A stretch of 20,847 bases of DNA from Promethearchaeia archaeon (GTDB lineage: Archaea; Asgardarchaeota; Lokiarchaeia; Sigyniarchaeales; SOKP01), in assembly GCA_029856155.1 (NCBI GenBank), contig JAHQWL010000077.1:1-20847 (forward strand), in the 5' to 3' direction. Of the stretch, positions 1 through 19,580 are shown piece by piece; positions within the stretch are counted from its first letter, which is position 1; the number at the start of each line of letters is the position of its first letter. The notes beneath the pieces were generated by a model, which made no database searches, was not told the origin of the DNA, and worked only from the letters and a program-made list of their open reading frames with translations. The translations under genes were made by a program, and so were the position numbers.

Positions 1-10
1 AATTATAGGT

Positions 11-1675
11 TTGAATTCAATAAAACAACTTAGAGAAGAGGGGAAAATAAAGGAAGCCTTACAAATTGTTTTAGAATTAGAACAAGGAGACAATCTTTCT
101 CTTAAAGAATTACTCTTATATAAACTTGTTAAAGCTAATCTATTACGTGAGTTAGGAAACTTCTTAGACGCAATTGAAATTGCTAAGGAAATTTTTCAAG
201 AATTTCAGAAACTAGGAGATTTAGTATCATCATTTGATGCATTACTCATTCAAGCTTATTCCTATATGATAACGGTCAATATAACTCAATGTGAAGATAT
301 AATTCCGCAAGCAGAAAATTTACTTAAAATAATTAAAGAAACATCTTCAATAGATCTAAGAGAAAGAGAATCTTTTTTCATAAGGATAAAAGCTAGCATT
401 TACTTTTTTAAGGGAGAAATTCAACAATCTTTAGAACTTAATAAAAGGGCTTATAAACTAGCCAAAGACACAGGCAATAAAGGATTGATTTCTACGAGTC
501 TTAATAATATTGCTGACAAATTTTATCATATGAAAGATTATGATAAAGCAATAAAATATGCAAAAGAAGCCTTTAAGGTTAAAAATAACCGATACTTGGC
601 AGTTGTGTTAGGTACCTTAATTGAAATTAATGTTAGTAAGGGAGATATTAAAGAAGCAAAAGTTTATCTAGATCAATTGCGTGAACACTCCGAAAAATTT
701 GATATTAAACCGCAAAAAATTTATTATCGTCATTCAGAGGCTTTGATATTAAAATCAAGTCTACGAGCAAGAGATCGTATTAAAGCGGAAGATATATTTA
801 AAGAGTTAGCTATGGACAATACAATACTTAGTGATATACGGATTCAGGCAATAATAGGCTTATGTGATTTATATCTCACTGAACTTCGGATAACTAATGA
901 TCTTGACATAATAAACGAGATACACCCACATATTCAAGAGTTGTTAAGTATTGCTGAAAAGCAACATTTATATTTATATTTAGCCGAAACTCACCTTCTG
1001 CAAGCAAAACTTTCATTATTAACTTTAGATTTAAAGGAAGCTAAACGATTTTTAGCTCAAGCTCAAAAAATAGCAGAATTATATGGTATAAAACGATTGG
1101 CAATGAGAATTTCATACGAGTATGATAAATTACTCAGACAAACCAAAATGTGGGAGAATTTGAAAGTTTCTGAAATGCCTTTATCTGAACGTTTGGAGCT
1201 TACTGGTTTGAACGAGCAAATGGAAAATATGGTAAAAAGAGGAATGATCGAAGTTCCAGAAATATCAAAAGAAGAGCCTGTTATGCTATTGATCTTAACG
1301 GAGGGTGGTACTCTTTTATTCTCTAAAAAATTTATGGAAGACTTTTCTTTTGAAGATGATATATTAGGGGGTTTTTTAACTTCGATAAATTATTTTATTA
1401 GTGAGGTATTTTCTGAAGGGCTTGATAGGGCAGTTTTTGGCCAGTATACGCTACTTATGATGCCAATTCAACCATTTTTAGCATGTTATATCTTTAAAGG
1501 AGACTCGTACTTTGCTCACCATAAGATTAAAAATTTTCTCGATTCCATACAGAAGGACACTTTTATTTGGAAATATTTGGAAGAAATTTTCCAAAAGAGT
1601 AAATCAGTTCAATTAAACGATATTCCATCACTTAAATCGCTAGTAACAGAGATTTTTGTTGAGAAAAAAAATTAG
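11..1675 (+). CDS. TPR-repeat protein with C-terminal longin-like domain (paralog 1; probably 5'-truncated by the window edge)
   Basis: TPR-like helices (e.g. SLNNIADKFYHMKDYDKAIKYAKEAF). C-terminal ~130 aa (from nt 1271) show a longin-type pattern: PVMLLILTEGGTLLFSKKF...DDILGGFLTSINYF. The frame is open from nt 2, and IIGLNSIKQLREEGKIKEAL aligns to LNQLTRAEELFNEGELEKAL of paralog 2, so the true start probably lies ~5 codons before the window. Confidence 0.85.
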   Translation: MNSIKQLREEGKIKEALQIVLELEQGDNLSLKELLLYKLVKANLLRELGNFLDAIEIAKEIFQEFQKLGDLVSSFDALLIQAYSYMITVNITQCEDIIPQAENLLKIIKETSSIDLRERESFFIRIKASIYFFKGEIQQSLELNKRAYKLAKDTGNKGLISTSLNNIADKFYHMKDYDKAIKYAKEAFKVKNNRYLAVVLGTLIEINVSKGDIKEAKVYLDQLREHSEKFDIKPQKIYYRHSEALILKSSLRARDRIKAEDIFKELAMDNTILSDIRIQAIIGLCDLYLTELRITNDLDIINEIHPHIQELLSIAEKQHLYLYLAETHLLQAKLSLLTLDLKEAKRFLAQAQKIAELYGIKRLAMRISYEYDKLLRQTKMWENLKVSEMPLSERLELTGLNEQMENMVKRGMIEVPEISKEEPVMLLILTEGGTLLFSKKFMEDFSFEDDILGGFLTSINYFISEVFSEGLDRAVFGQYTLLMMPIQPFLACYIFKGDSYFAHHKIKNFLDSIQKDTFIWKYLEEIFQKSKSVQLNDIPSLKSLVTEIFVEKKN

Positions 1676-1755
1676 TGAAAGTTTGTTTGCTATTTTATAC
1701 AGCCTTTCTTGTATTGATTTGGTCCAAAGGTACATTGAATTAGTAAGCACTTTTT

Positions 1756-1824
1756 TTACATTATATTTAAAACACCACTTAACTTATTATATTCATAGGT
1801 TTATAATCCAATTATCACAAATTT
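1756..1824 (+). promoter_or_regulatory. Duplicated upstream/promoter block of TPR-longin paralog 2 (candidate TATA TTTATAAT at 1800-1807)
   Basis: Aligns without gaps to 3816-3884, and both blocks end exactly at the ATG of a paralog. No obvious Shine-Dalgarno site, consistent with a leaderless transcript. Confidence 0.55.
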
Positions 1825-2394
1825 ATGTCTCATCCTGAGCTAAACCAACTAACAAGAGCGGAAGAACTTTTTAATGAAGGTGAGCTTGAAAAGGCTCTTG
1901 AAATATTAAATGATTGGAAACAATTTGAAGGGCTTAATCCTCAACAAAAAAGCTATTACCAATTTATTAAGGGGTTGATTCTGGCATATCAACACAAATT
2001 CGAAGAAGTCATTAGGTGGGGAGAACAAATATTTGAAGAAGGTCAAAAACTTAAGGAAAATCTCCAATCTTTCGATGGGTTATTTTTTATTATTTTTGGA
2101 TTTATAGAAGCCGAAAAAATTGACGAAGCATACAAATTACTTGAAAAAGCTAAAACTTCATTTAAACTTATTTCTAATGAACCTAAGAATGTTTTAATTC
2201 GAAGAAGAGTTCGTTTAGATTTGTTAAAAGCATGGATTAACTTTGAATTGGCTAATATAGATTTAGCAGAAAAGGGTTTAGAACGGATCTTTGATCTATA
2301 TCAAGAACTCCCTAATTCTTTCGAAATTGTTTGGCCTTATTTATTAAAAGGACTAATTGAATTTTATTTAAAAAAAATACGGAAATTTCGTTGA
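1825..2394 (+). CDS. N-terminal fragment of TPR-longin paralog 2
   Basis: Starts MSHPELNQLTRAEELF, near-identical to the start of 3885-5831. Confidence 0.6.
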   Translation: MSHPELNQLTRAEELFNEGELEKALEILNDWKQFEGLNPQQKSYYQFIKGLILAYQHKFEEVIRWGEQIFEEGQKLKENLQSFDGLFFIIFGFIEAEKIDEAYKLLEKAKTSFKLISNEPKNVLIRRRVRLDLLKAWINFELANIDLAEKGLERIFDLYQELPNSFEIVWPYLLKGLIEFYLKKIRKFR

Positions 2395-3773
2395 ACTATT
2401 TCAAGAAAGCATTATCAAACGCTAAGGAAATTAAATTTAACCATTACTGGATTGCTATATGTCACGGTTATTCTGCAGTTGTTTATTGTTCTATTGGAGA
2501 TTTAGATAATTGTTTAAAACATTATATGAAAGCTTTAGAAAAAATGAAAGGGTTTCATAGCTTTTATTTAGATGCAGTTTTCTTGAATAACATCGGATAT
2601 ATATATTGTGAAAAAGGTGAATATGACCGCGCTTTGAAAAATTTGGAGGAGTGTTTATTACTCAGTGAAAAAAAACAATCTATATCAAAAGCAACTCCAC
2701 TTACTAGTTTAATAGAAATTGCCCTTATAAAGGGAGATGTTGAACTTGCGAAAAAACATTTCCATCATTTGGAAAATATATATAACCAAAATAAAGAAGA
2801 ACGTATCGAACTAAATTATATTTACTCTAAAGCTTTAATATTAGAAAGAAGTTCGCGAATCCGAGATAAAGCTAAAGCTGAAAAATTATTTAAACAAGTT
2901 GTTCGAACTAAAACCATATATTTTAATCTAATTATAAGCGCATATATCCATCTTTGTGATTTACTTCTCTCAGAATATCGCATAAGTAATAATGATGAAG
3001 TCCTTGATGAAATCAATCAGAATATTACTCAATTAATAGCTATAGCTGAAAAATCTCATTCATACCTTGTTTTTTGTGAGACCTTCATTTTGCAAACTAA
3101 ATTGGCTTTATTAACTTTTAATATAAAAGTAGCCCGACGACTTTTAACTCAAGCTCAGAAAATAGCGGAATCATATGGCATAAAACGATTGGCGATGAAA
3201 ATCTCAAATGAACATGATAATTTATTAAAAGAATTGCATAACTGGGATTTATTGAATGAATCAAAAGCAAGTCTGGCGGAGCGCATTGAATTAGCCCGAT
3301 TAGATGATCAGATGACAACTATGTTAAAAAAACGGTCATTAGAAGTTCCAGAGATATCAAAAGAAGACCCTGTTATGCTATTAATCTTAACCGAGGGTGG
3401 TAATCTTTTATTCTCTAAAAAGTTTAAGGAGGATTTTTCTTTTGAAGATGATATTTTAGGAGGCTTCCTAACTACTGTAAATTACATAATTAGTGAAGTA
3501 TTTTCTGAAGGTCTTGATAGAGCTGTTTTCGGTCAATACACGCTTCTTATGATGCCCCTTCAACCATTTTTAGTATGTTATATCTTTAAAGGGGCTTCAT
3601 ATTATGCTTACCATAAGATTAAAAACTTTCTTAATTCCATTCAGAATGATAGTTTTATTTTGCAATCTTTACAGAATTTTTTACAAAAGAGTAAATCTAT
3701 TCAAATAAACGATATTCCATCGCTTGAATCCATAATAACAGAGATTTTTATTAAGAGAAATCTGGTCCAATAA
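2391..3773 (+). CDS. C-terminal fragment of TPR-longin paralog 2 (TPRs + longin-like domain)
   Basis: TPR (FLNNIGYIYCEKGEYDRALKNLEECL); longin-like domain from nt 3363, nearly identical to that of paralog 3. Confidence 0.65.
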   Translation: MNYFKKALSNAKEIKFNHYWIAICHGYSAVVYCSIGDLDNCLKHYMKALEKMKGFHSFYLDAVFLNNIGYIYCEKGEYDRALKNLEECLLLSEKKQSISKATPLTSLIEIALIKGDVELAKKHFHHLENIYNQNKEERIELNYIYSKALILERSSRIRDKAKAEKLFKQVVRTKTIYFNLIISAYIHLCDLLLSEYRISNNDEVLDEINQNITQLIAIAEKSHSYLVFCETFILQTKLALLTFNIKVARRLLTQAQKIAESYGIKRLAMKISNEHDNLLKELHNWDLLNESKASLAERIELARLDDQMTTMLKKRSLEVPEISKEDPVMLLILTEGGNLLFSKKFKEDFSFEDDILGGFLTTVNYIISEVFSEGLDRAVFGQYTLLMMPLQPFLVCYIFKGASYYAYHKIKNFLNSIQNDSFILQSLQNFLQKSKSIQINDIPSLESIITEIFIKRNLVQ

Positions 3774-3815
3774 TATATTAAATTAATAAAACGGAAAGTT
3801 AAAATTCGTAATCTA

Positions 3816-3884
3816 TTACACTACATTTAAAACACTAATTAGCTTATTATATTAATAAGTTTATAGTCCAAATCAAATAAGTAC
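3816..3884 (+). promoter_or_regulatory. Duplicated upstream/promoter block of TPR-longin paralog 3 (candidate TATA TTTATAGT at 3860-3867)
   Basis: Gap-free match to 1756-1824 with identical spacing to the ATG. Confidence 0.55.
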
Positions 3885-5831
3885 ATGTCCCATCCAGAGC
3901 TAAATCAACTAACGTTGGCAGAAGAACTTTTTGATACTGGCAAGCTTATTGAAGCTCTTGATATACTAAATGATGAGAGCCATTTTGAGGGGCTTAATCT
4001 TCAGCAAAAAAGCTATTTTCAGTTTCTTGAGGGATTAATTCTCTTTTATCTTAATAAAGGGGAAGATCTCATTAATTTAGGTGACACAATTTATAAAGAA
4101 GGTCAAAAATGTAATGATAATCTCCAATCTTGTGATGGATTAATTTTTATTATTACTGGATTAGTTATATCTGGTAAATTTGAGGAAGCGTTCAATTTTT
4201 TTGAAGAAATTGATTCAGTAATAAATTCTCTCTCAAATGTGTCTAAAGAAATTATAACTCAAAGAAAAGCTCGTTTAAGTGTAGCAAAAGCCTTTATTGG
4301 ATTGCGTGGTAAAGTAGATTTAGTTGAGAGTTCTTTAACGTGGATCTTAGATTCACAAGAAAAATTCGATAAATCATACGAAATCGTCTGGGCTAATCTT
4401 ATAATGGCGAGTTATTTACTTCGAGTAAAATCTAATTTTGATCTTTGTAGGGAGCATATCAAAAAAGCATTATCTCTTGCAAAGGAAATTAAATTTAATC
4501 ACCACTGGATTGCTACTTGTCAAATCTATCTTGGAGTATATTATTGGGCTATTGGCGAAATGGAGAAAAGCTTGAAATATAACCTAAAGGGTTTAGAATT
4601 ATTTAAAAAGATAAAGAGTAATTTTAATATTGTAATTCTATTAAATAATCTGGGGGGTTTATATGGTGACATGGGTAAATATGAACTTGCTGTGGAACAT
4701 TTAGAGGAGAGTATAAATCTTTTAGAACAACTTCCTCAAGGTTTTATTTCTATTGAAGGCGTTATTGTAAGTTTAATTACATTAGCCGTTGAACATGGGG
4801 ATAACGAGCGTGCTCAAAAATATTTTCATCGTTTGGAAGATATTTATAACCAGAAAAAAGGCGATGGAATTGAACTTGATTACAAATTCACTAAAGCCCT
4901 AATTTTAAAAACAAGTTCTCGAATCCGAGATAAAATAAAAGCAGAAGAATTATTCAAAGAAATTGTAAAAACTGAAACTACAGTTTTTGATGCTATTATA
5001 AAAGCTCATATCCATCTTTGTGACATACTTCTAATGGAATATCGTATTGATAATGATAGTGAGATTTTGGCCGAATTAAATTATTACATTGCCAAATTAT
5101 TAACTATCGCGAAGAAACAACATTCATATTTAGTTTTTTGTGAAACCTTCATACTTCAGGCTAAATTGGCTTTATTAAATTTTGATATAAAATCGGCTCG
5201 ATTGTTTTTTACTCAAGCACAGAAGATAGCAGAGTCTTATAGCATGAAACGCTTAGCAATGAAAATATCCTTTGAACATGATGAATTACTCAGACAAACC
5301 AAAATGTGGGAGAATTTGAAAATTTCTGAAGTGTCTTTATCTGAACGTTTGGAGCTTACTGGTTTGAACAAACAAATGGAAAATATGGTAAAAAGAGGGA
5401 TTATCGAAGTTCCAGAGATATCAAAAGAAGACCCTGTTATGCTATTAATCTTAACCGAGGGGGGTAATCTTTTATTCTCTAAAAAGTTTAAGGAGGATTT
5501 TTCTTTTGAAGATGATATTTTAGGAGGCTTCCTAACTACCGTAAATTATATAATTAGTGAAGTATTTTCTGAAGGTCTTGATAGGGCAGTTTTTGGCCAA
5601 TACACTCTTCTTATGATGGCTTTTGAACCATTTTTAATTTGTTATATCTTTAAGGGGCACTCTTATTTTGCCTATCATAAGATTAAAAATTTTCTTGATT
5701 CTGTTAAGAATGATAGTGTTATTTTGCAATCTTTACAGAATTTTTCACAAAAGAGTAAATCTATTCAAATAAACGATATTCCATCGCTGGAATCCATCGT
5801 GACAGAGATTTTTACTAAGAAAAATATTTAG
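3885..5831 (+). CDS. TPR-repeat protein with C-terminal longin-like domain (paralog 3, intact, 648 aa)
   Basis: Canonical TPRs (YLGVYYWAIGEMEKSLKYNLKGLEL; LLNNLGGLYGDMGKYELAVEHLEESINL); longin-like domain from nt 5427. Confidence 0.88.
   Translation: MSHPELNQLTLAEELFDTGKLIEALDILNDESHFEGLNLQQKSYFQFLEGLILFYLNKGEDLINLGDTIYKEGQKCNDNLQSCDGLIFIITGLVISGKFEEAFNFFEEIDSVINSLSNVSKEIITQRKARLSVAKAFIGLRGKVDLVESSLTWILDSQEKFDKSYEIVWANLIMASYLLRVKSNFDLCREHIKKALSLAKEIKFNHHWIATCQIYLGVYYWAIGEMEKSLKYNLKGLELFKKIKSNFNIVILLNNLGGLYGDMGKYELAVEHLEESINLLEQLPQGFISIEGVIVSLITLAVEHGDNERAQKYFHRLEDIYNQKKGDGIELDYKFTKALILKTSSRIRDKIKAEELFKEIVKTETTVFDAIIKAHIHLCDILLMEYRIDNDSEILAELNYYIAKLLTIAKKQHSYLVFCETFILQAKLALLNFDIKSARLFFTQAQKIAESYSMKRLAMKISFEHDELLRQTKMWENLKISEVSLSERLELTGLNKQMENMVKRGIIEVPEISKEDPVMLLILTEGGNLLFSKKFKEDFSFEDDILGGFLTTVNYIISEVFSEGLDRAVFGQYTLLMMAFEPFLICYIFKGHSYFAYHKIKNFLDSVKNDSVILQSLQNFSQKSKSIQINDIPSLESIVTEIFTKKNI
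5284..5584 (+). repeat. Near-identical DNA tracts shared with paralog 1 (1128-1242) and paralog 2 (3342-3520)
   Basis: Manual alignment: 5284-5398 vs 1128-1242 has 5 mismatches in 115 nt; 5406-5584 vs 3342-3520 has 3 mismatches in 179 nt. Confidence 0.85.
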
Positions 5832-5937
5832 TAGAATTGTATTATTAAAACTCTCCAAATCCCTAAAATTTTATATTAAACTAATCCTAATCTTACATTA
5901 GAAAAAAATTATAAATTGACTATAATTCAGAAACCTA

Positions 5938-6480
5938 ATGAAGAATTTTGAGGAATTTCGATTTAAGATAGTTGTTGTTGGAGATGGAGCAGTAGGTAAG
6001 ACCTCCTTAATTAAAAAATTCACGAAGGGTACGTTTGAAAAGGATTATGTAAAAACCATTGGAGCTCAATTTTCAAAATATAACAAGGAATTTAATGGAG
6101 ATATGGTTAGATTATTATTCTGGGATATAGCAGGTCAAGATGATTTCAATTTTCTACATCACCTGTTTTATAAAGAGGCTAAAGCAGCAATAATTGTATA
6201 TAGTCTTGAAGAAAATGAACTTGGTCAAAATAGCTTTACACATATAAAGAATTGGCATGAAGTAGTAGAAAAAAATTGCGGAAATATTCCCATTGTTTTA
6301 TTTGCTAATAAAGTTGATTTAGTGGATGAAAACAGTATAAATATATCAAAAATCCGAAAAGTTGTTAATGAACATAATTTTTTAAATTTTTTTTTTACGT
6401 CAGCAAAAACAGGCCAAGGAGTAGTTGAGGCATTCAATACAATAATTGAGCAATTATATTCAAAATTTAAAACTTTGTAA
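5938..6480 (+). CDS. Rab-like small GTPase (Ras superfamily)
   Basis: G1 GDGAVGKT, G2 KTIG, G3 WDIAGQ, G4 NKVD, G5 TSAK. RabF-like motifs IGAQF, RLLFW and FYKEA. No C-terminal prenylation cysteines. Confidence 0.95.
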   Translation: MKNFEEFRFKIVVVGDGAVGKTSLIKKFTKGTFEKDYVKTIGAQFSKYNKEFNGDMVRLLFWDIAGQDDFNFLHHLFYKEAKAAIIVYSLEENELGQNSFTHIKNWHEVVEKNCGNIPIVLFANKVDLVDENSINISKIRKVVNEHNFLNFFFTSAKTGQGVVEAFNTIIEQLYSKFKTL

Positions 6481-6592
6481 CAATGATTTTAGCCTCATTT
6501 CTTTATTAATAGGAAATAAGAATTCACTCTTTTCCTATAATTGATATAAAAAAAATATTGGTTTTTTTAAATCTATTTTTGAATTATCAATT

Positions 6593-7186
6593 GTGATTAT
6601 CGATCATTGTGATAAGACAATCAGTATAAAAATTGTGTATTTTGGTCCAGCTCTTTCGGGTAAGACTACATCAATAAAGGCTCTATTTTCTGATTTTGGA
6701 AAAGATGAAGAAGTATATAGTATCGAAAGTACTGTAGATAGGACCCTTTTTTTTGATTATGGAACAGTAACCTTTCAAAACCAAGAATGGGCTCTTAAAA
6801 TCCATATTTATACTACCACAGGGCAAGATTTCTATTTTATTACTCGACCTATCACTTTAAGAGCTGTAGACGGAGTGATATTCGTTATTGATTCTCAAGA
6901 AGATGTTTATGAGAGAAATTTGACTTCTTGGCGTGAATTAATCTCTTACTTTAATGAATCAATTGAGGATCTTCCAATAATCATCGCTTTTAACAAACAA
7001 GATTTAGAAGATAAATTTAACTCTATAGATTTCTTGAAAGAAATCGGGTATTATAACTATAAAAATATTGATACCAGATTTACGAGTGCCTTAAAAGGAG
7101 AAGGTGTTTTAGATTGTTTTGAAGATATTTTAAGATTAATATTAAAAAAATATTATAATCACAAACTAGTTTCTGTAATAAATTGA
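6593..7186 (+). CDS. mglA: MglA-family small GTPase
   Basis: KIVYFGPALSGKTT, the MglA signature DRTLFFDY with its intrinsic Arg, TTTGQ in place of DxxGQ (cf. MglA TVPGQ), NKQD, SALKGEGV. GTG start. Confidence 0.88.
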   Translation: MIIDHCDKTISIKIVYFGPALSGKTTSIKALFSDFGKDEEVYSIESTVDRTLFFDYGTVTFQNQEWALKIHIYTTTGQDFYFITRPITLRAVDGVIFVIDSQEDVYERNLTSWRELISYFNESIEDLPIIIAFNKQDLEDKFNSIDFLKEIGYYNYKNIDTRFTSALKGEGVLDCFEDILRLILKKYYNHKLVSVIN

Positions 7187-7363
7187 ATTATCAAAACCTT
7201 AGTAAAAGTATCTTTTTTAATTGTTTTGATTTAACAAATTTAAGTTCTTTTACTTTAAATCAGTGTTATTATTACGGTTAAATTTCAAAAATATTTACTA
7301 ATGTTAAATTAGACATAAATATATAAATGATTTTTTTTTTAACATTTAATGGGTTAAAAATAC

Positions 7364-9634
7364 TTGAAGATAAAGAGCTATATATTCATAATTTCAATTA
7401 TAGTGGGTTTTATATTTGGTATAGTTATAAGTATAGATTTTTCCCATGCCCAAGAAAATGGAGAATCTCTAATAATTTCTTCAAATTTTCAGATGATCGA
7501 ATTTTCAGAGGATCATGGGACGATAGAAAATTCAACATCAGTGAATATTGATCTTCTATCTCCAAATTGGATATTAACAGAAATAGAACTTAATTTTACT
7601 AGTATTAGGATGAATTCTGAAATAAAGATAATTGAAGAAGAAGCAAGTGGTTTCGAAACTTTAAGAGGTAATTCTAATGAAATTTTAGGGATGCAAATAA
7701 ATATTACAGAACCTACGATTATTTATTCGATAGATATATTTGGCTATAAAGCGATTAAAACTACTACCCCAACACCTGTATATGTCCGAATAGAGGGATG
7801 GGATTCTATTGATAGAAGACCAAATGGAGTAACTTATAGTGTTCCCTTCATACTAAATATGACAGAAGGAACCCCTCAATGGAATAAACAAACATTTCAA
7901 TTTCCAGTCTATTTATCTTCAGGATTATATTGTTTAGTGCTTGATGGAACTGGGATAAGTTGGAATGATAAATACTACTGGTATATCAATAATGATAATC
8001 CAAGATCACAATTATCTATGTGTTGGTATGATGATAACTTAGGTGAATGGCATAATAGGACAGGAGATGTGTTTCTCCATAAGATAAAACAAAGAGTTAA
8101 TCGATCATATTTTCCTTCTAAAATTAACATGACTGCCGAAATTGGCAGCAATTCCTATACTATTATAGATGGAATTGAATTAGGATCCGGAAAGCTTTCT
8201 ATAGAAAGTCTTGATTTCTATACGGGGGGATCTATGATAAATATTTTCATTAAAAATAATTCATCTATTACTTTAGAATTGAATTTTAATTATCATGTTT
8301 CTCTTAAGCATATGATTTTCTCAGAAGGATCCGTATTATTAAGGGAAAATTTGGAAAATGAATGGACAGTCAATCCTGAATTTATAAGAGTATATTCAAA
8401 TTACTCGATAAAATTTTATTATCCAAAAAGTTGGTATAATATTACAATCTATAGAAATGGACTTGATGTTACAAACGATGTAGATCTTAATAACACTGAC
8501 AACTTTATTTTTATTTCAAATAACACTTTAAAAGAGGGAGAAATCTGGTTAATATCTGCATATTCTCCTAACATTGATTTTACATTAAATATAGGAAAGA
8601 CGGGATATGAACCATTGCAAAATTTGAAATTCTCCGTTAATGCACCCGTTATTCAAGGTAAAATAACTTATATATTGATGGATTCCTTAGGTTTTGAAGA
8701 ATTTAAGGAAACAAAACAGGTTACTTCTCAAGAAACGTTATTTTGTTGTAATATATCTGCAAAGCCAGTTACGGGAATATATAAAGCTTACTTATTCTGG
8801 TATAATAACACTGATGGAGGTGTTAAAACTCAAGAATTTTTAATTAGTGTTCCTTTTACAATACCACTCGAAATGGTTTTAGATATTATTTTACTTGTGA
8901 CTATTATTTTAGGAGGGAGTATTTCGGGTTATGTCTTAGTAAAAAGAAAAAGAAGGATTAACGCCGAACGTCAACAAAAAATAATCAATAAATTCATAGA
9001 TGCCTTAAATCTACACTATTTTATTCTTTCTGATAAAAATTCTGGACTAACAGTTTATGAACAATTCTTTACAGGTAAATATGTAGATAGTTCTTTAATA
9101 TCTGGATTCTTACAGGCCGTACGAGCTTTTGGAATAGAATTAACACATGCTAACATAGAAACTCAAAGTGTCAAATTGGAATATCAGAATTCAAAGATTT
9201 TAATGTCAGATTATAAAGACTCTAGAATTATTCTGATTATGGAGGAAAATCCTTCTCAAGACTTTATAGATTCAATAAATGCTTTGTCATTTGATCTCGA
9301 AGAAAAATTTGGACACTTATTTGAAGATTTTGATGGAGATATTACTCAATTCTGTGAAATAAAAGGTTTACTCGATCTTCATCTTCACACTTCCTTAATC
9401 TACCCTTTAAAAGTCATAACACAAAATAAAAAAATTACTTCAGACGAACAAATAATTATAAATCGAGCCTTAAAAATAATGAAAGAAAAAAATACAGATC
9501 ATTTCTTTGTATCGTCCCTATATGATAAACAGAAAGAATTTCAATTAAATGATGCTGAAGCAATTCTAAATTTAATTGAAAAAAGAATATTTCAACCTAT
9601 AAATAAAGACTTTAACTTAATTAAAAAAAACTAG
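7364..9634 (+). CDS. Membrane receptor-like protein: N-terminal signal/anchor, beta-rich ectodomain, TM helix, cytoplasmic longin-like domain and possible winged-helix tail
   Basis: Hydrophobic N-terminus; more than a dozen N-x-S/T sequons before the TM; TM (VLDIILLVTIILGGSISGYVLV) followed by KRKRR; longin pattern LHYFILSDKNSGLTVYEQFF...DSSLISGFLQAVRAFG...FEDFDGDITQF. TTG start. Confidence 0.85.
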   Translation: MKIKSYIFIISIIVGFIFGIVISIDFSHAQENGESLIISSNFQMIEFSEDHGTIENSTSVNIDLLSPNWILTEIELNFTSIRMNSEIKIIEEEASGFETLRGNSNEILGMQINITEPTIIYSIDIFGYKAIKTTTPTPVYVRIEGWDSIDRRPNGVTYSVPFILNMTEGTPQWNKQTFQFPVYLSSGLYCLVLDGTGISWNDKYYWYINNDNPRSQLSMCWYDDNLGEWHNRTGDVFLHKIKQRVNRSYFPSKINMTAEIGSNSYTIIDGIELGSGKLSIESLDFYTGGSMINIFIKNNSSITLELNFNYHVSLKHMIFSEGSVLLRENLENEWTVNPEFIRVYSNYSIKFYYPKSWYNITIYRNGLDVTNDVDLNNTDNFIFISNNTLKEGEIWLISAYSPNIDFTLNIGKTGYEPLQNLKFSVNAPVIQGKITYILMDSLGFEEFKETKQVTSQETLFCCNISAKPVTGIYKAYLFWYNNTDGGVKTQEFLISVPFTIPLEMVLDIILLVTIILGGSISGYVLVKRKRRINAERQQKIINKFIDALNLHYFILSDKNSGLTVYEQFFTGKYVDSSLISGFLQAVRAFGIELTHANIETQSVKLEYQNSKILMSDYKDSRIILIMEENPSQDFIDSINALSFDLEEKFGHLFEDFDGDITQFCEIKGLLDLHLHTSLIYPLKVITQNKKITSDEQIIINRALKIMKEKNTDHFFVSSLYDKQKEFQLNDAEAILNLIEKRIFQPINKDFNLIKKN

Positions 9635-10832
9635 CTTCAGAAACAGGAGATTGAATCCTAATTTTCTGTTGACTATTATCTTCCAATACTGAAATTAATG
9701 CAGTAATATTTTGCTTTGATTTATAAAAGATTTCTTTCTCTTCACCCTTTTTCCAAGTATTAAAACCAGTTAATTGTGAAGCAGTTTCGAATAACCCTTC
9801 TTGCAACCCTGAAATCACCACAGTTACTCCTTTTAAATCATTTTTAGAAATGTTTTTTATTTTCATTATGTACTTCTCAATATCAGAATCAATGGATAAT
9901 ACTTTATAGATCTTCTGGAATTTTGAAATCCCATCAAATAAGGAAGATGCGACAGCAGAACTTTCCGAAAATAAATCTACACCAACTTTTTCCTCAGAAA
10001 TTGGTCCTGTAGAAATTGTTATTGGTATTTCAAGTTTTATTGGTTCTAATCCATACTCTGGTTTTTTCTTTCCAATGATTAGTAAACTCCACTTAGTATA
10101 CGCTCCGTACCTAAACCCAAATTGTTCTTTCTCAGAGGGTGACCATAAATAATTATGACTTGGTTCTGCAACTTCTGGAACCTTTAAAAGTAAAAAATCT
10201 TTCTCAAAATTCTGTGTTCGAACATCTCCTGCAATTGCAGGAGGAAGTTCCTCGACTTTACGACAATTCTGACCATATGCTTCACAATAACAAACCAAAT
10301 TTGCATTCTGAAGAAGTCTTATTTCTAATTGTTTAAGTTCATTTGAAGAATAACCGATTTTAATAGTTTCTCCTGGCTTAAAAATATCTTTTGTTAAAAG
10401 AATGTTTAAACCCGAAATTGAAAATGAGATTGGTTTTGGGGATTTTGCTTGAAATCCAGAATTTCTTGCTTTAATCTCAATATCATGAGTTTTATTAATT
10501 ACTAAATCATCTTCAGGATTAATTGGATTAGGCTGTCTTAAATTTAATTTTAGAGTATAATTTAGATTTCTATTCTTTATTGTAGGGACAAAGTTAGTTT
10601 TAATTAAGAGAGATTTTTCACGAACATATTCACCTGGTTCAAATTTGCCTTTACTAAATATTTCCTCTTTTGAAATTTGAAGTTCTTTAGCACAAGGAGG
10701 ATTAGTAATTAATTGAATTCCACTCCAAAAAATTTCAGCCTCTTTTTCAAAATTGTACTTTGTTCGAACGTTTAACTTATCCCCGATAAAGACAGAACCA
10801 TTATTTAAATCCTTTAACTCTAATTTTACCAA
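9621..10832 (-). CDS. Arrestin-fold (alpha-arrestin/Vps26-like) protein with extra C-terminal Ig-like domain
   Basis: N-domain pattern GKFEPGEY...NFVPT...LNYTLKLNL; C-domain pattern ILLTKDIFKPGETIKI...LEIRLLQ...LKVPEVAEPS...KWSLLI...IKLEIPITIST, resembling arrestin_N/arrestin_C consensus. Overlaps the convergent gene by 14 nt. Confidence 0.7.
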   Translation of the reverse strand: MVKLELKDLNNGSVFIGDKLNVRTKYNFEKEAEIFWSGIQLITNPPCAKELQISKEEIFSKGKFEPGEYVREKSLLIKTNFVPTIKNRNLNYTLKLNLRQPNPINPEDDLVINKTHDIEIKARNSGFQAKSPKPISFSISGLNILLTKDIFKPGETIKIGYSSNELKQLEIRLLQNANLVCYCEAYGQNCRKVEELPPAIAGDVRTQNFEKDFLLLKVPEVAEPSHNYLWSPSEKEQFGFRYGAYTKWSLLIIGKKKPEYGLEPIKLEIPITISTGPISEEKVGVDLFSESSAVASSLFDGISKFQKIYKVLSIDSDIEKYIMKIKNISKNDLKGVTVVISGLQEGLFETASQLTGFNTWKKGEEKEIFYKSKQNITALISVLEDNSQQKIRIQSPVSEASFF

Positions 10833-12177: not shown

Positions 12178-13026
12178 ATGCATGAACTTATATTTTTCAG
12201 TATGTTTTTATTAGTTTTGATAAGATTAATAGGATTTATTGTCTCTGTGAATTTTTATTATGAATCAAAATCTAATACATACATTTATTTCACTACTGGG
12301 TGGTTTTGTTGGGTTACAGCAGGAATTGTTGCCTTAATTTCTGCAATTACTAATAATCAAATACAAGAAAGCTTTTTTCTTTTAATGAATTATATTATCG
12401 GACCCATAGCAATATTTTTATTAGGATCTGGACTAAGCTCCTATTATATTAAAATTTCTTCCAATAAAATTAAATTACTCTCTGTGTTATTAATAGCTTT
12501 TCCAATAATTCTTAATTTTTCTCTGGGACTAGTTCCTGTTGCGTTATATGCCCGGATATCTCAGTTTCTTGGAATTATTACAATCTTCTTATTACCTTTT
12601 TTAAGGTATAACTCCTTTAAGAAAAGAATTGGGAAAAGCATTAAATGGTACTATCTAACTTGCTTTTCAATAATTCTCTATATACCTTTAGCAATTTTAA
12701 GTATGATAACTTCTATATACTCTGGTTCATTCCAGAGTCAAGATATTACCATAATCATTGGAGCTTATACTTCTATCATTATAATGACTATTTTAGTTAT
12801 AGCTTTTATAATTCATTTAGAATACACTATAACCAGTGAACAAGAGAAACAGTTGAAAGATAAGTATTCTCACGACTTAGGAAATATTATGCAGGTAATT
12901 TATAGTTCTGCTGATCTTTTTAAAAGAATTGGCAAGGAAGAGAATATTGAGAATGATAAATTGGATTTAATAGAAAAAAAATGTAAAGAAGCAGCTAAAT
13001 TAATAGACGAAATAAGAAACCTCTAA
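12178..13026 (+). CDS. 7TM membrane sensor with HisKA (DHp) domain but no HATPase domain
   Basis: Seven hydrophobic segments followed by the H-box YSHDLGNIMQVIYSSADL and a second DHp helix. The protein ends there and the next gene starts after a 26-nt gap. Confidence 0.82.
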   Translation: MHELIFFSMFLLVLIRLIGFIVSVNFYYESKSNTYIYFTTGWFCWVTAGIVALISAITNNQIQESFFLLMNYIIGPIAIFLLGSGLSSYYIKISSNKIKLLSVLLIAFPIILNFSLGLVPVALYARISQFLGIITIFLLPFLRYNSFKKRIGKSIKWYYLTCFSIILYIPLAILSMITSIYSGSFQSQDITIIIGAYTSIIIMTILVIAFIIHLEYTITSEQEKQLKDKYSHDLGNIMQVIYSSADLFKRIGKEENIENDKLDLIEKKCKEAAKLIDEIRNL

Positions 13027-13052
13027 ATAATTTATAAGATAAAAATCTATAG

Positions 13053-13424
13053 ATGATTATCATAGTCAATATCTTAATAGTTGATGATGATGTGGACATT
13101 GTTAACCTTTTCGAGCAATTCTTAAAGTTCAAAGGTCATACCATAGTTGCTAAAGCTTCTAATGGTGAGGAAGCGTTAGAAATTTATAAAAATTTTAAAA
13201 ACACTCCAGACATAATTATAATGGATCACAGAATGCCTTTGAAAAATGGATTGGAGACAACAAAAGAAATTTTAGCAATTAATCCTGATTGTAAGATTAT
13301 TTTTGTAAGTGCGGATTATAGTGTCAGAGAAAAGGCTTTAGAAATGGGAGTAATTGAATTTTTAGAAAAACCTATAGATTTTAGCACTTTATTTAATATA
13401 ATTGAGAAATACAATCATAATTAA
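13053..13424 (+). CDS. Stand-alone CheY-like response regulator receiver
   Basis: ILIVDDD acidic pocket, PDIIIMDHRMPLKNG (phosphoacceptor Asp), FVSA, FLEKP. Confidence 0.95.
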   Translation: MIIIVNILIVDDDVDIVNLFEQFLKFKGHTIVAKASNGEEALEIYKNFKNTPDIIIMDHRMPLKNGLETTKEILAINPDCKIIFVSADYSVREKALEMGVIEFLEKPIDFSTLFNIIEKYNHN

Positions 13425-17930: not shown

Positions 17931-19580
17931 TTGAAGAGATATCGTTATGAAAAGTTAATGTTTTTGATATTAGTGATTTCCCTATTTTCTTTTGGAACTA
18001 AACCATATATACTTGATTCCGGCTCTAAAAATTTGATAATCGGTGAACCTAAAACAGCATTAAGTGCAAATTTAGCCGCATGGATTATTATAGCTGGTGA
18101 TAGATCAGACCATGATAAACTAAGTGTAATAAGAAGTGGATGTGATCAAGCTTATGAAGCATTAATGAATCGAGGATTTAGTGCTGCTGATATATACTAT
18201 TTAGATCCTGACTATACGGGTGTACCTTTATCTCCTTATCGAGATGGTAATACAGTCAATGCAAATATTCGATGGGCGATTGAAACATGGGCAGCTACTA
18301 AAGTAGATCATTCTCATGGTCTTGGTATTTATATGTTTGATCATGGAGGAGTAGGTCATATGTGTATTCCTGGTACAGATTTGACTGACACTGATTTAAA
18401 TACGTGGTTAAACACGTTAGAAACTAGTACAGGTTGTAATCGCTTTATTATTATCTATGAAGGTTGTCATGCAGGTTCATTTATTAATCCAGTTAGTAAA
18501 GATAATCGTATCATTTTAACTGCAACAGATATAGATCATGGATCATATACAAGTCCAACTTGGGAAGCGGCTACGTTCTCTGAGAAGTTTTTTTCATCAA
18601 TCACAGAGTGTAAAACAATTGGCGAGGCATTTGAAGAAGCTGAGGCATATGTTCATGCTGTGGGAGATGGTGATATTCAATTTCCTTGGATTGATGATAA
18701 TCATGATGAGATTGGTCATGAGGTAGATGCATTTGGAAATTTACCAAATGGTGGAGATGGAAACGACGCATTAAATTATTGGATAGGATCGGGAACTAAC
18801 TGTCCCCCAGTATTTAAACTATGGTTTCCATTAAGAGTTTTTATTATAAATTTTACATCTCTCATTCCGACATGGGCTGCAATTGATAGATTTCCCATGA
18901 TAGACAAAGTGTATGTTAGAATTACTCCACCAAATTGGATACCATCCGCAATTGAGACTGATAATGAAGGTTCGAAAATTGGTGCTCATACTGGCTTGAT
19001 GTTAGTAGAATTATTAGACCAAAATGGCGATGGCAATTATACCGGTAATCTCTATAATCCTAATCTTCCTGATTTCTGGGGTTCGGAAGGAGATTATAGA
19101 ATTAATATAATAACTACGAGTAAAAATGGTACTGTTGGTAATGCCGAATCTACTTATATTACGGTAAATGAGGATGGAAAAGCACCCCCCGATACTATAC
19201 TCCCTACAATTTCAATAACAAATCCAGCATCCAATGCACAATTAAGTGGAATTTTTAATATTACTGCTGAAGGAGATGATGATCAGGCTCTTGATAAAAT
19301 TCAAATTTTTGTAGATGGTGCAATGGTAAAAGAAGAAACAATGCCCCCATATTATCCATATCCAGAGGTGACTTATAGTTTAGACACAAGCCAATATTCA
19401 ATTGGAGTTCATAATATTACTGCGACTGCTATAGATAAAGAAAGCAATAAAAAATCGATTTCAATTTCAGTAAATCTCATAGTAGGGAGAGGAATACCAG
19501 GTTTTCAAGTTAATTTTTTGATTTTTGGTTCCATTCTTGGAATTATCATAATATATAGGGTAAAAATAAAAGTGAAGTAA
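17931..19580 (+). CDS. Secreted clan CD cysteine peptidase (C13 legumain/Gpi8-like) with Ig-like (Big) domain and PGF-type C-terminal sorting signal
   Basis: Signal peptide; WIIIAG; catalytic dyad motifs IYMFDHGG and IIYEGCHAGSF; Big-type domain DTILPTISITNP...IQIFVDG...HNITATAID; tail GIPGF + TM + basic residues. TTG start with GAGGG upstream. Confidence 0.85.
   Translation: MKRYRYEKLMFLILVISLFSFGTKPYILDSGSKNLIIGEPKTALSANLAAWIIIAGDRSDHDKLSVIRSGCDQAYEALMNRGFSAADIYYLDPDYTGVPLSPYRDGNTVNANIRWAIETWAATKVDHSHGLGIYMFDHGGVGHMCIPGTDLTDTDLNTWLNTLETSTGCNRFIIIYEGCHAGSFINPVSKDNRIILTATDIDHGSYTSPTWEAATFSEKFFSSITECKTIGEAFEEAEAYVHAVGDGDIQFPWIDDNHDEIGHEVDAFGNLPNGGDGNDALNYWIGSGTNCPPVFKLWFPLRVFIINFTSLIPTWAAIDRFPMIDKVYVRITPPNWIPSAIETDNEGSKIGAHTGLMLVELLDQNGDGNYTGNLYNPNLPDFWGSEGDYRINIITTSKNGTVGNAESTYITVNEDGKAPPDTILPTISITNPASNAQLSGIFNITAEGDDDQALDKIQIFVDGAMVKEETMPPYYPYPEVTYSLDTSQYSIGVHNITATAIDKESNKKSISISVNLIVGRGIPGFQVNFLIFGSILGIIIIYRVKIKVK

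Follow-up and report, generated by a model that had tools for sequence, protein, structure and literature searches.

We examined the entire 20,847-nucleotide contig JAHQWL010000077.1 of a Promethearchaeia archaeon (the window; C77 among the 104 contigs of a 4.1 Mb genome), which carries genes for tetratricopeptide repeat (TPR)-longin proteins, a Rab-like and an MglA-like GTPase, a receptor-like membrane protein, and an arrestin-fold protein. The actual unit of this locus is a cassette, [TPR-longin]n > Rab. Gene order, co-evolution, and a complex model support a link between the longin domain and the adjoining Rab, with which it evolved while the TPR part was exchanged. The original prediction had placed six co-oriented genes and a convergent arrestin-fold gene in one pathway. 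All seven genes lie at the coordinates and in the orientations it gave (Table 1), and both small GTPases have intact G1–G5 motifs, but relatives do not keep the seven together, and the locus is a patchwork, not a single pathway. The region probably consists of three modules of different history, with a cassette at the core in which the longin acts on its cognate Rab.

The tail of the TPR proteins models as a longin domain, as had been proposed. Residues ∼515–645 of the third TPR-longin gene (gene 3) model at a predicted local distance difference test (pLDDT) score of 84, with the element order β-β-α-β-β-β-α-α(-α) and the five-strand meander of longins. The best structural match of this model is TRAPP Trs23 (Z 13.5, root-mean-square deviation 2.5, 123 aligned residues). 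Further matches are to CPLANE, BLOC-3, adaptin mu, and Mon1-Ccz1, all above roadblocks; overall, the tail shares the longin fold with TRAPP Bet5/Trs23, Mon1-Ccz1, HPS1-HPS4 (BLOC-3), and Fuzzy-Inturned at Z scores of 12–13.5. Fuz_longin_1 is its top Pfam family, matched by 14 of 140 members of the homologue alignment used for model and profile (best E 2.7e-4). Single-sequence Pfam and PDB sequence searches detected neither this fold nor the arrestin fold described below; alignments and models were needed. Four longin domains had been predicted at the locus: those of the TPR proteins stand on modelling, and that of the receptor has profile support only (hidden Markov model E 0.006).

Gene order ties these longins to one Rab subfamily at two levels of divergence. 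At the closer level, longins of at least 73% identity (30 copies in 18 genomes) go with Rabs of at least 79% identity (16 copies in 16 genomes). Each of these 16 Rabs has such a longin upstream of it, immediately so in 15 cases and across one small gene in the other, and the matching Rab is present in 16 of the 18 genomes that hold the longin clade; one of the two exceptions stops at a contig edge. At the second level, longins near 50% identity go with Rabs at 63–69%, at other loci. The pairing is also seen in a sister genus, and the reversed order, Rab before TPR-longin, occurs at loci L086–L090. The TPR-longins are an expanded family, with 0 to 28 genes per genome within the genus; of 251 genomes that span the phylum, 102 hold a representative. 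Since the source genome encodes ∼60 Rab-like genes and >20 longin-like open reading frames, co-location by itself means little.

Sequence comparison of 62 TPR-longin genes upstream of 39 Rabs gives a more specific link. Pairwise longin identity follows Rab identity with a Pearson correlation of 0.77, versus 0.13 for the TPR region (residues 1–330); for array genes at least 1.5 kb from the Rab, the two values are 0.74 and 0.06. Mapped on the trees, Rab clade requires two changes for the longin versus nine for the TPR region. Gene 3's own TPR clade mixes six Rab-A and six Rab-B genes, and an approximately unbiased test rejects a single TPR clade for the Rab-A genes (p 5e-34). Ancestry switches at residues 490–510, which is the domain border. 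Longin and Rab have equal synonymous depth (synonymous divergence, pS, 0.41–0.43), and the TPR region is older (0.56–0.60); a nonsynonymous divergence (pN) of 0.10 places the longin under purifying selection. Recent gene conversion was considered as the cause of the similar longins within arrays and rejected, as pS within arrays equals pS between genomes.

A structural model of two longin copies with the Rab passed a calibrated test. The pass mark is reached by 58 of 80 solved pairs versus 2 of 110 mismatched pairs; the modelled complex scored 0.65, and the best of three controls, which did not include the MglA-like GTPase, scored 0.01. At least 92% of contacts are shared between runs, and the partner pLDDT is at least 82. 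On the longin side, the predicted contacts involve the β1-β2 loop (residues 524–529, with invariant Gly527), α1, and a strand near 623–626; on the Rab side, they involve β1, the end of switch I, and switch II. Most come from one longin copy, the second giving just two contact residues. The α1 surface is likewise the GTPase site in Mon1-Ccz1 and TRAPP (PMC5216073), and in MglA/MglB and SR-alpha SRX/SR-beta a roadblock or longin receives the GTPase on its single-helix face (PMC3747258). Two positions within the modelled interface vary together: longin Asp544 accompanies a basic residue at Rab position 8 in two distinct clades, and a residue other than Asp accompanies a non-basic one elsewhere, over few events.

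Several observations weigh against a longin–Rab partnership. Complexes of this kind have already been solved (5LDD, 3CUE), so the model pass may reflect likeness; close cousins also pass, the pass says nothing on specificity versus the MglA-like GTPase, and interface columns are conserved no more than the rest of the domain (0.57 vs 0.57). One genome (G035) holds the longin clade with no matching Rab found, and a clade A Rab has an array gene of the other longin clade 5 kb upstream of it. Neither related genomes nor tandem duplicates count as independent cases, and the clade match rests on few ancestral events. Physical linkage by itself can also give neighbours a common history under recombination, which leads to an alternative: the Rab hitch-hikes on a duplicating TPR-longin array, and the longin serves something else, as a module for dimerisation or docking. 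This fits the abundance of Rab-like genes, the existence of TPR-only paralogues, and the lack of a Rab within 1.5 kb downstream of most distant TPR-longins (2 of 30 loci of other classes have one, and it is a different Rab). We nonetheless regard it as improbable. Array genes 2–6 kb from the Rab match it in the longin and not in the TPR region, the break in history falls at the domain border, and both genes keep their own promoter-like elements. Moreover, the pairing recurs in reversed order, in the sister genus, and with the different Rab in another class, and the complex model passed. At the two loci in that class (L176 in G063 and L178 in G214), the TPR-longin is followed by a Rab of 32% identity and a response regulator.

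The Rab-like GTPase itself is a clear Ras-family protein (Pfam Ras, E 3.7e-42) with invariant G1–G5 motifs, as in eukaryotic Rabs. It keeps the catalytic Gln67, and Phe33, Tyr37, and Lys39 are invariant; we infer that Lys39 occupies the place of MglA's intrinsic arginine. Unlike eukaryotic Rabs, it has no hypervariable prenylated tail: the protein ends in FKTL at residue 180, and no prenylation cysteine occurs in it or in any of the 39 cognate Rabs. The absence of any prenylatable tail or cysteine points to a soluble switch, and the proposed analogy with membrane traffic, with a membrane-bound Rab and the arrestin as cargo adaptor, finds no support. The output of the switch is probably not vesicle traffic and possibly involves winged-helix-TPR proteins, whose genes recur beside this Rab subfamily and which are candidate outputs, effectors, or regulators of the Rab. 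These proteins form an expanded family of ∼635 aa (e.g., L036:5778-7691, C54:19919-21820, C54:28211-30127, C65:22595-24517, and C102:2550-4445).

We therefore retain the longin–Rab cassette as the first of the three modules. It comprises one to three TPR-longin genes and then one Rab-like GTPase gene, with a longin predicted to bind its cognate Rab through the β1-β2 loop and α1, as in the TRAPP and Mon1-Ccz1 platforms, and to control or read the Rab's nucleotide state. The N-terminal TPR solenoids are swapped among paralogues by recombination at the domain border and, if they are sensory, would feed several different inputs onto one soluble GTPase switch. Guanine nucleotide exchange factor (GEF) activity is the commonest role of longin platforms, and it is also the best guess for this longin, if short of an even chance. 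The model shows no capture of Phe33/Tyr37 such as occurs in Mon1-Ccz1; this absence, the contacts mostly from one longin, and the placement of Lys39 leave room for other modes, of which a GTP-state effector or scaffold is a tentative second and a GTPase-activating protein (GAP)-like mode is doubtful. That the TPR-longins are arginine-finger GAPs of the FLCN/NPRL2/SMCR8 type is very improbable indeed. Arg567 is invariant in the 140 homologues and the Rab keeps Gln67, but Arg567 is not among the modelled contacts, and the GP motif before β2 that marks GAP longins (PMC12290439) is found in none of the 140.

In comparison with known systems, the TPR-longin is predicted to work like a longin platform for a Rab and is not a member of the TRAPP, Mon1-Ccz1, or GAP-longin families. 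As in longin-dimer Rab GEFs, the GTPase is modelled on the α1 face, and small residues lie at the predicted Rab contact as in Mon1 (G232, G250/T254; PMC5216073), an equivalence suggested by position. Unlike those GEFs, the protein has a single C-terminal longin behind a long, exchangeable TPR solenoid and no tri-longin or multi-subunit build, and its modelled contacts come mostly from one longin copy, with strand pairing to Rab β1. A more far-reaching reading is a modular sensory system of Lokiarchaeia, in which TPR sensors are swapped onto a Rab-specific longin and a soluble Rab acts on a winged-helix-TPR transcription factor as effector. We consider this unlikely; if true, longin–Rab control served signal transduction before its recruitment to membranes.

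The remaining genes follow other histories. In the alternative that unites the locus, both GTPases are targets of longins borne by the receptor and by TPR sensors, and the arrestin serves as adaptor or effector. All of the folds involved are verified or likely, much of the family keeps the MglA-like gene tail-to-tail with the arrestin gene, and the full order recurs in one relative (G006, L033) and probably in another (G009). Across 17 same-genus loci around the arrestin gene, however, the arrestin is found in 17 and the MglA-like gene in 16, and the TPR-longin/Rab cassette is found in 7 and the receptor in 1. The arrestin is also older than the arrangement, and at all 13 distant loci it lies behind a Rag-like gene. 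An arrestin fold does bind Rab6 in Ric1-Rgp1 (PMC11618376), and Rgp1 is among the top structural matches of the arrestin described here, but Rgp1 binds the Rab6 tail (PMC11618376), which is absent from this Rab. We judge a single pathway quite improbable. The earlier proposal that the longins act on the neighbouring GTPases thus stands in part: gene order, co-evolution, and the complex model link the longin to the Rab, and the MglA-like gene is independent of the cassette.

The receptor is a sporadic occupant of the locus. It has an N-terminal anchor, an ectodomain of ∼460 aa flanked by two hydrophobic segments (the second a transmembrane stretch at ∼495–525), and a cytoplasmic part that is likely, from sequence profiles, a longin domain. 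From residue ∼550 onward, hhalign matches this part to the verified longins (probability 65%, E 6e-5, 70 columns), and weak signal suggests that the cytoplasmic part probably ends in a winged helix. Atlas searches with the two parts of the receptor returned nothing at ≥0.9, the longin part matching unnamed Asgard clusters only. In wider searches, the receptor stands next to the arrestin in only three relatives; its paralogues lie mostly in their own clusters away from the window genes, and its slot is elsewhere filled by another membrane protein (DUF285) or a 270-aa gene.

The MglA-like GTPase carries the motifs GPALSGKTT, DRTLFFD, TTTGQ, and NKQD. An arginine is kept before the G2 threonine (DRT), and together the motifs, intrinsic arginine included, fit what we take to be the MglA consensus. 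As in Myxococcus MglA/MglB, the GTPase is thus of MglA type; unlike that pair, no roadblock (MglB) gene stands beside it at the locus, and the longin's matched partner is the Rab-like GTPase. The missing neighbour would let a longin take the MglB role in a single pathway, and a TPR-longin gene directly precedes the MglA-like gene in G035. The MglA-like gene nevertheless persists where the TPR-longin array is absent. Its usual upstream gene in relatives encodes a 125-aa protein, helical and weakly PCI-like, which we rejected as an MglB. Two paralogues occur elsewhere in the genome (C75:882-3403 and C97:39130-39729, with identities of about 51% and 76%); the C75 copy is preceded by a roadblock-like gene and a gene of 298 aa, and by eye this resembles the roadblock/DENN/GTPase operon of Liu et al. 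We propose that the family-level MglA-like gene, tail-to-tail with the arrestin gene, forms a further module (module 3), with an insertion site between the two genes that holds the receptor-longin here.

The minus-strand gene encodes an arrestin fold, as predicted, with an additional domain. Its model has two arrestin sandwiches (residues 1–277) and a third, immunoglobulin (Ig)-like sandwich (305–397). Foldseek gives E values of 3e-11 to 1e-9 against Vps26 proteins, structural matches include Spo0M (Z 14.7, N-lobe), Vps26 (13.5), and Rgp1 (13.0), and 30 of 55 homologues match Pfam Arrestin_C. Two arrestin sandwiches place the protein with the arrestin clan (Vps26, alpha-arrestins, Rgp1, Spo0M), of which Spo0M is a known prokaryotic member (PMC2515105); arrestin domains have also been reported from Asgard genomes. 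Unlike that clan, it has a single chain that carries both lobes together with a four-Cys site (invariant Cys47, 181, 183, and 190) and a third Ig domain common to an FrhB-like protein, keeps a conserved position behind a Rag-like GTPase, and has no PPxY motif in its sequence.

This arrestin is present in several families of the phylum. It directly follows the Rag-like gene in all 13 loci outside the family, usually also behind an FrhB-like gene, and the fetched flanks of these loci contain no Rab, MglA, or TPR-longin. The order FrhB-like > Rag-like > arrestin survives in some family members; in the window, the Rag-like and FrhB-like genes lie on the arrestin's strand, separated from it by five inserted genes. 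Profile comparison relates the C-terminal Ig-like domain of the FrhB-like protein to the third domain of the arrestin (E 9e-4), and pairwise BLAST of the two tails is not significant. A longin-like protein (C91:7099-8148) also shares this domain at profile level; its gene often lies just upstream of the FrhB/Rag/arrestin cluster in distant genomes, and the protein is fused to CBS domains in L048. The cluster is kept across several Asgard lineages (L048–L053 and L151–L161). The adjacency in relatives places the arrestin's likely partners outside the coordinates of the original prediction. We propose that this older cluster, interrupted here by inserted genes, forms module 2, in which the arrestin would most likely partner the Rag-like GTPase and the FrhB-like protein. 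The cluster may sense redox or nutrients through its Rag GTPase, and it offers a second, older lead.

The TPR-longin array of the window likely consists of three full genes. Gene 1 had been given a start at TTG 11. Homologues of 78–85% identity begin ∼5 residues earlier, which indicates that it extends past the contig start and that its true start lies upstream of the edge. Gene 2 appears in the assembly as two frames (1825–2394 and 2391–3773) broken at an A8 run. Contigs of three sequencing runs have A9 at this site, one of them otherwise identical over 785 bases; therefore gene 2 is probably intact (∼650 aa) and the frameshift an assembly error. A programmed frameshift or pseudogene is disfavoured, since the extra A in three runs favours assembly error or a strain variant. 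Contigs of two runs join window position 2464 to 4581 (with a 30-base side only), which may reflect a paralogue or recombination between genes 2 and 3. Upstream, TPR-longin genes and Rab genes have separate conserved promoter-like elements (in the former, a TTTAAAA box ∼55 nt upstream of the ATG), and co-orientation therefore does not imply a single transcript; a scan for bacterial promoters and terminators gave chance-level results only. Elsewhere in the genome, TPR paralogues without a longin occur at C65:26981-28498 and C102:109-1629. The C65 copy is 59% identical to gene 1 and ends in a short CxxC tail, a further sign of domain swapping.

Table 1. Positions of the cassette, its promoter-like elements, and the neighbouring genes in the window
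Feature	Position	Strand	Remarks
TPR-longin 1 (562-aa subtype)	2..1675	+	∼5 codons missing at contig edge; longin ∼1270-1666
TPR-longin 2	1825..3773	+	split at A8 run 2370-2377; longin ∼3365-3764
TPR-longin 3, 648 aa	3885..5831	+	TPR 1-490; longin ∼515-645 (nt ∼5427-5819)
Promoter-like element of TPR-longin genes	1766..1824, second copy 3826-3884	+	conserved; putative function
Promoter-like element AAAATTTTATATT before cognate Rab genes	5862..5937	+	conserved; putative function
Rab-like GTPase, 180 aa	5938..6480	+	cognate partner of longins
MglA-like GTPase, 197 aa	6593..7186	+	separate from TPR-longin/Rab cassette
Membrane protein (receptor-longin), 756 aa	7364..9634	+	sporadic insertion at locus
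Arrestin/Vps26/Spo0M-fold protein, 403 aa	9621..10832	-	models and profiles
Rag-like GTPase, 302 aa	15197..16105	-	conserved upstream neighbour of arrestin in other lineages
FrhB-like 4Fe-4S protein, 495 aa	16184..17671	-	first gene of FrhB > Rag > arrestin cluster

Other genes of the window include a multi-pass membrane protein with a terminal HisKA-like helix and no ATPase domain (12178-13424, plus strand), followed by a stand-alone receiver domain; this arrangement is variably present and duplicated in relatives. At 17931-19580 (plus strand) lies the gene for a peptidase C13 (legumain/caspase clan) protein that is secreted or anchored and carries a Big_7 Ig domain. On contig C54 (23541-35010), the order of winged-helix-TPR, Rab, a 130-aa PCI-like gene, and small membrane genes is that which precedes the TPR-longin array in L031 and L039. 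C54 may continue into the window contig; no overlap between the two was found. Homologues of the window proteins carry the labels Promethearchaeota or Lokiarchaeota, and near-identical DNA is found in metagenomes of marine sediment and salt marsh.

Longins, longin fusions, GTPases, and arrestin domains of Asgard archaea are already known. Asgard genomes hold dozens of small GTPases and longins; they contain expanded, shuffled longin fusions tied to signal transduction and many Rab-, Rag-, and MglA-like GTPases (10.1101/2020.10.19.343400; PMC10933270). Our literature search turned up no publication that describes TPR-longin fusions or a pairing of these with a Rab. The present analysis adds co-evolution resolved to the level of domains, together with TPR swapping, a complex model with controls, and the exclusion of the arrestin, receptor, and MglA-like genes from the unit. 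Tran et al. found that GTPases are hard to match to their regulators from genome layout (PMC10933270); here, unlike in that situation, gene order and co-evolution give the match. Which Asgard GTPase is regulated by which longin is an open question in the field (PMC10933270), and the cassette names one pair, a rare testable regulator–GTPase match in the archaea closest to eukaryotes. The two co-evolving longin/Rab clades, the second of which (clade B) has a pair on contig C100 of the same genome, provide a natural specificity control, and the model points to residues for mutation. Since the Rab pairing is lineage-limited, the cassette is a model for ancestral chemistry and no proven ancestor of TRAPP or Mon1-Ccz1. 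Biochemistry of the pair would tell whether Rab-like GTPases were under longin control before eukaryotes arose, and whether the original mode of that control was that of a GEF, a GAP, or an effector.

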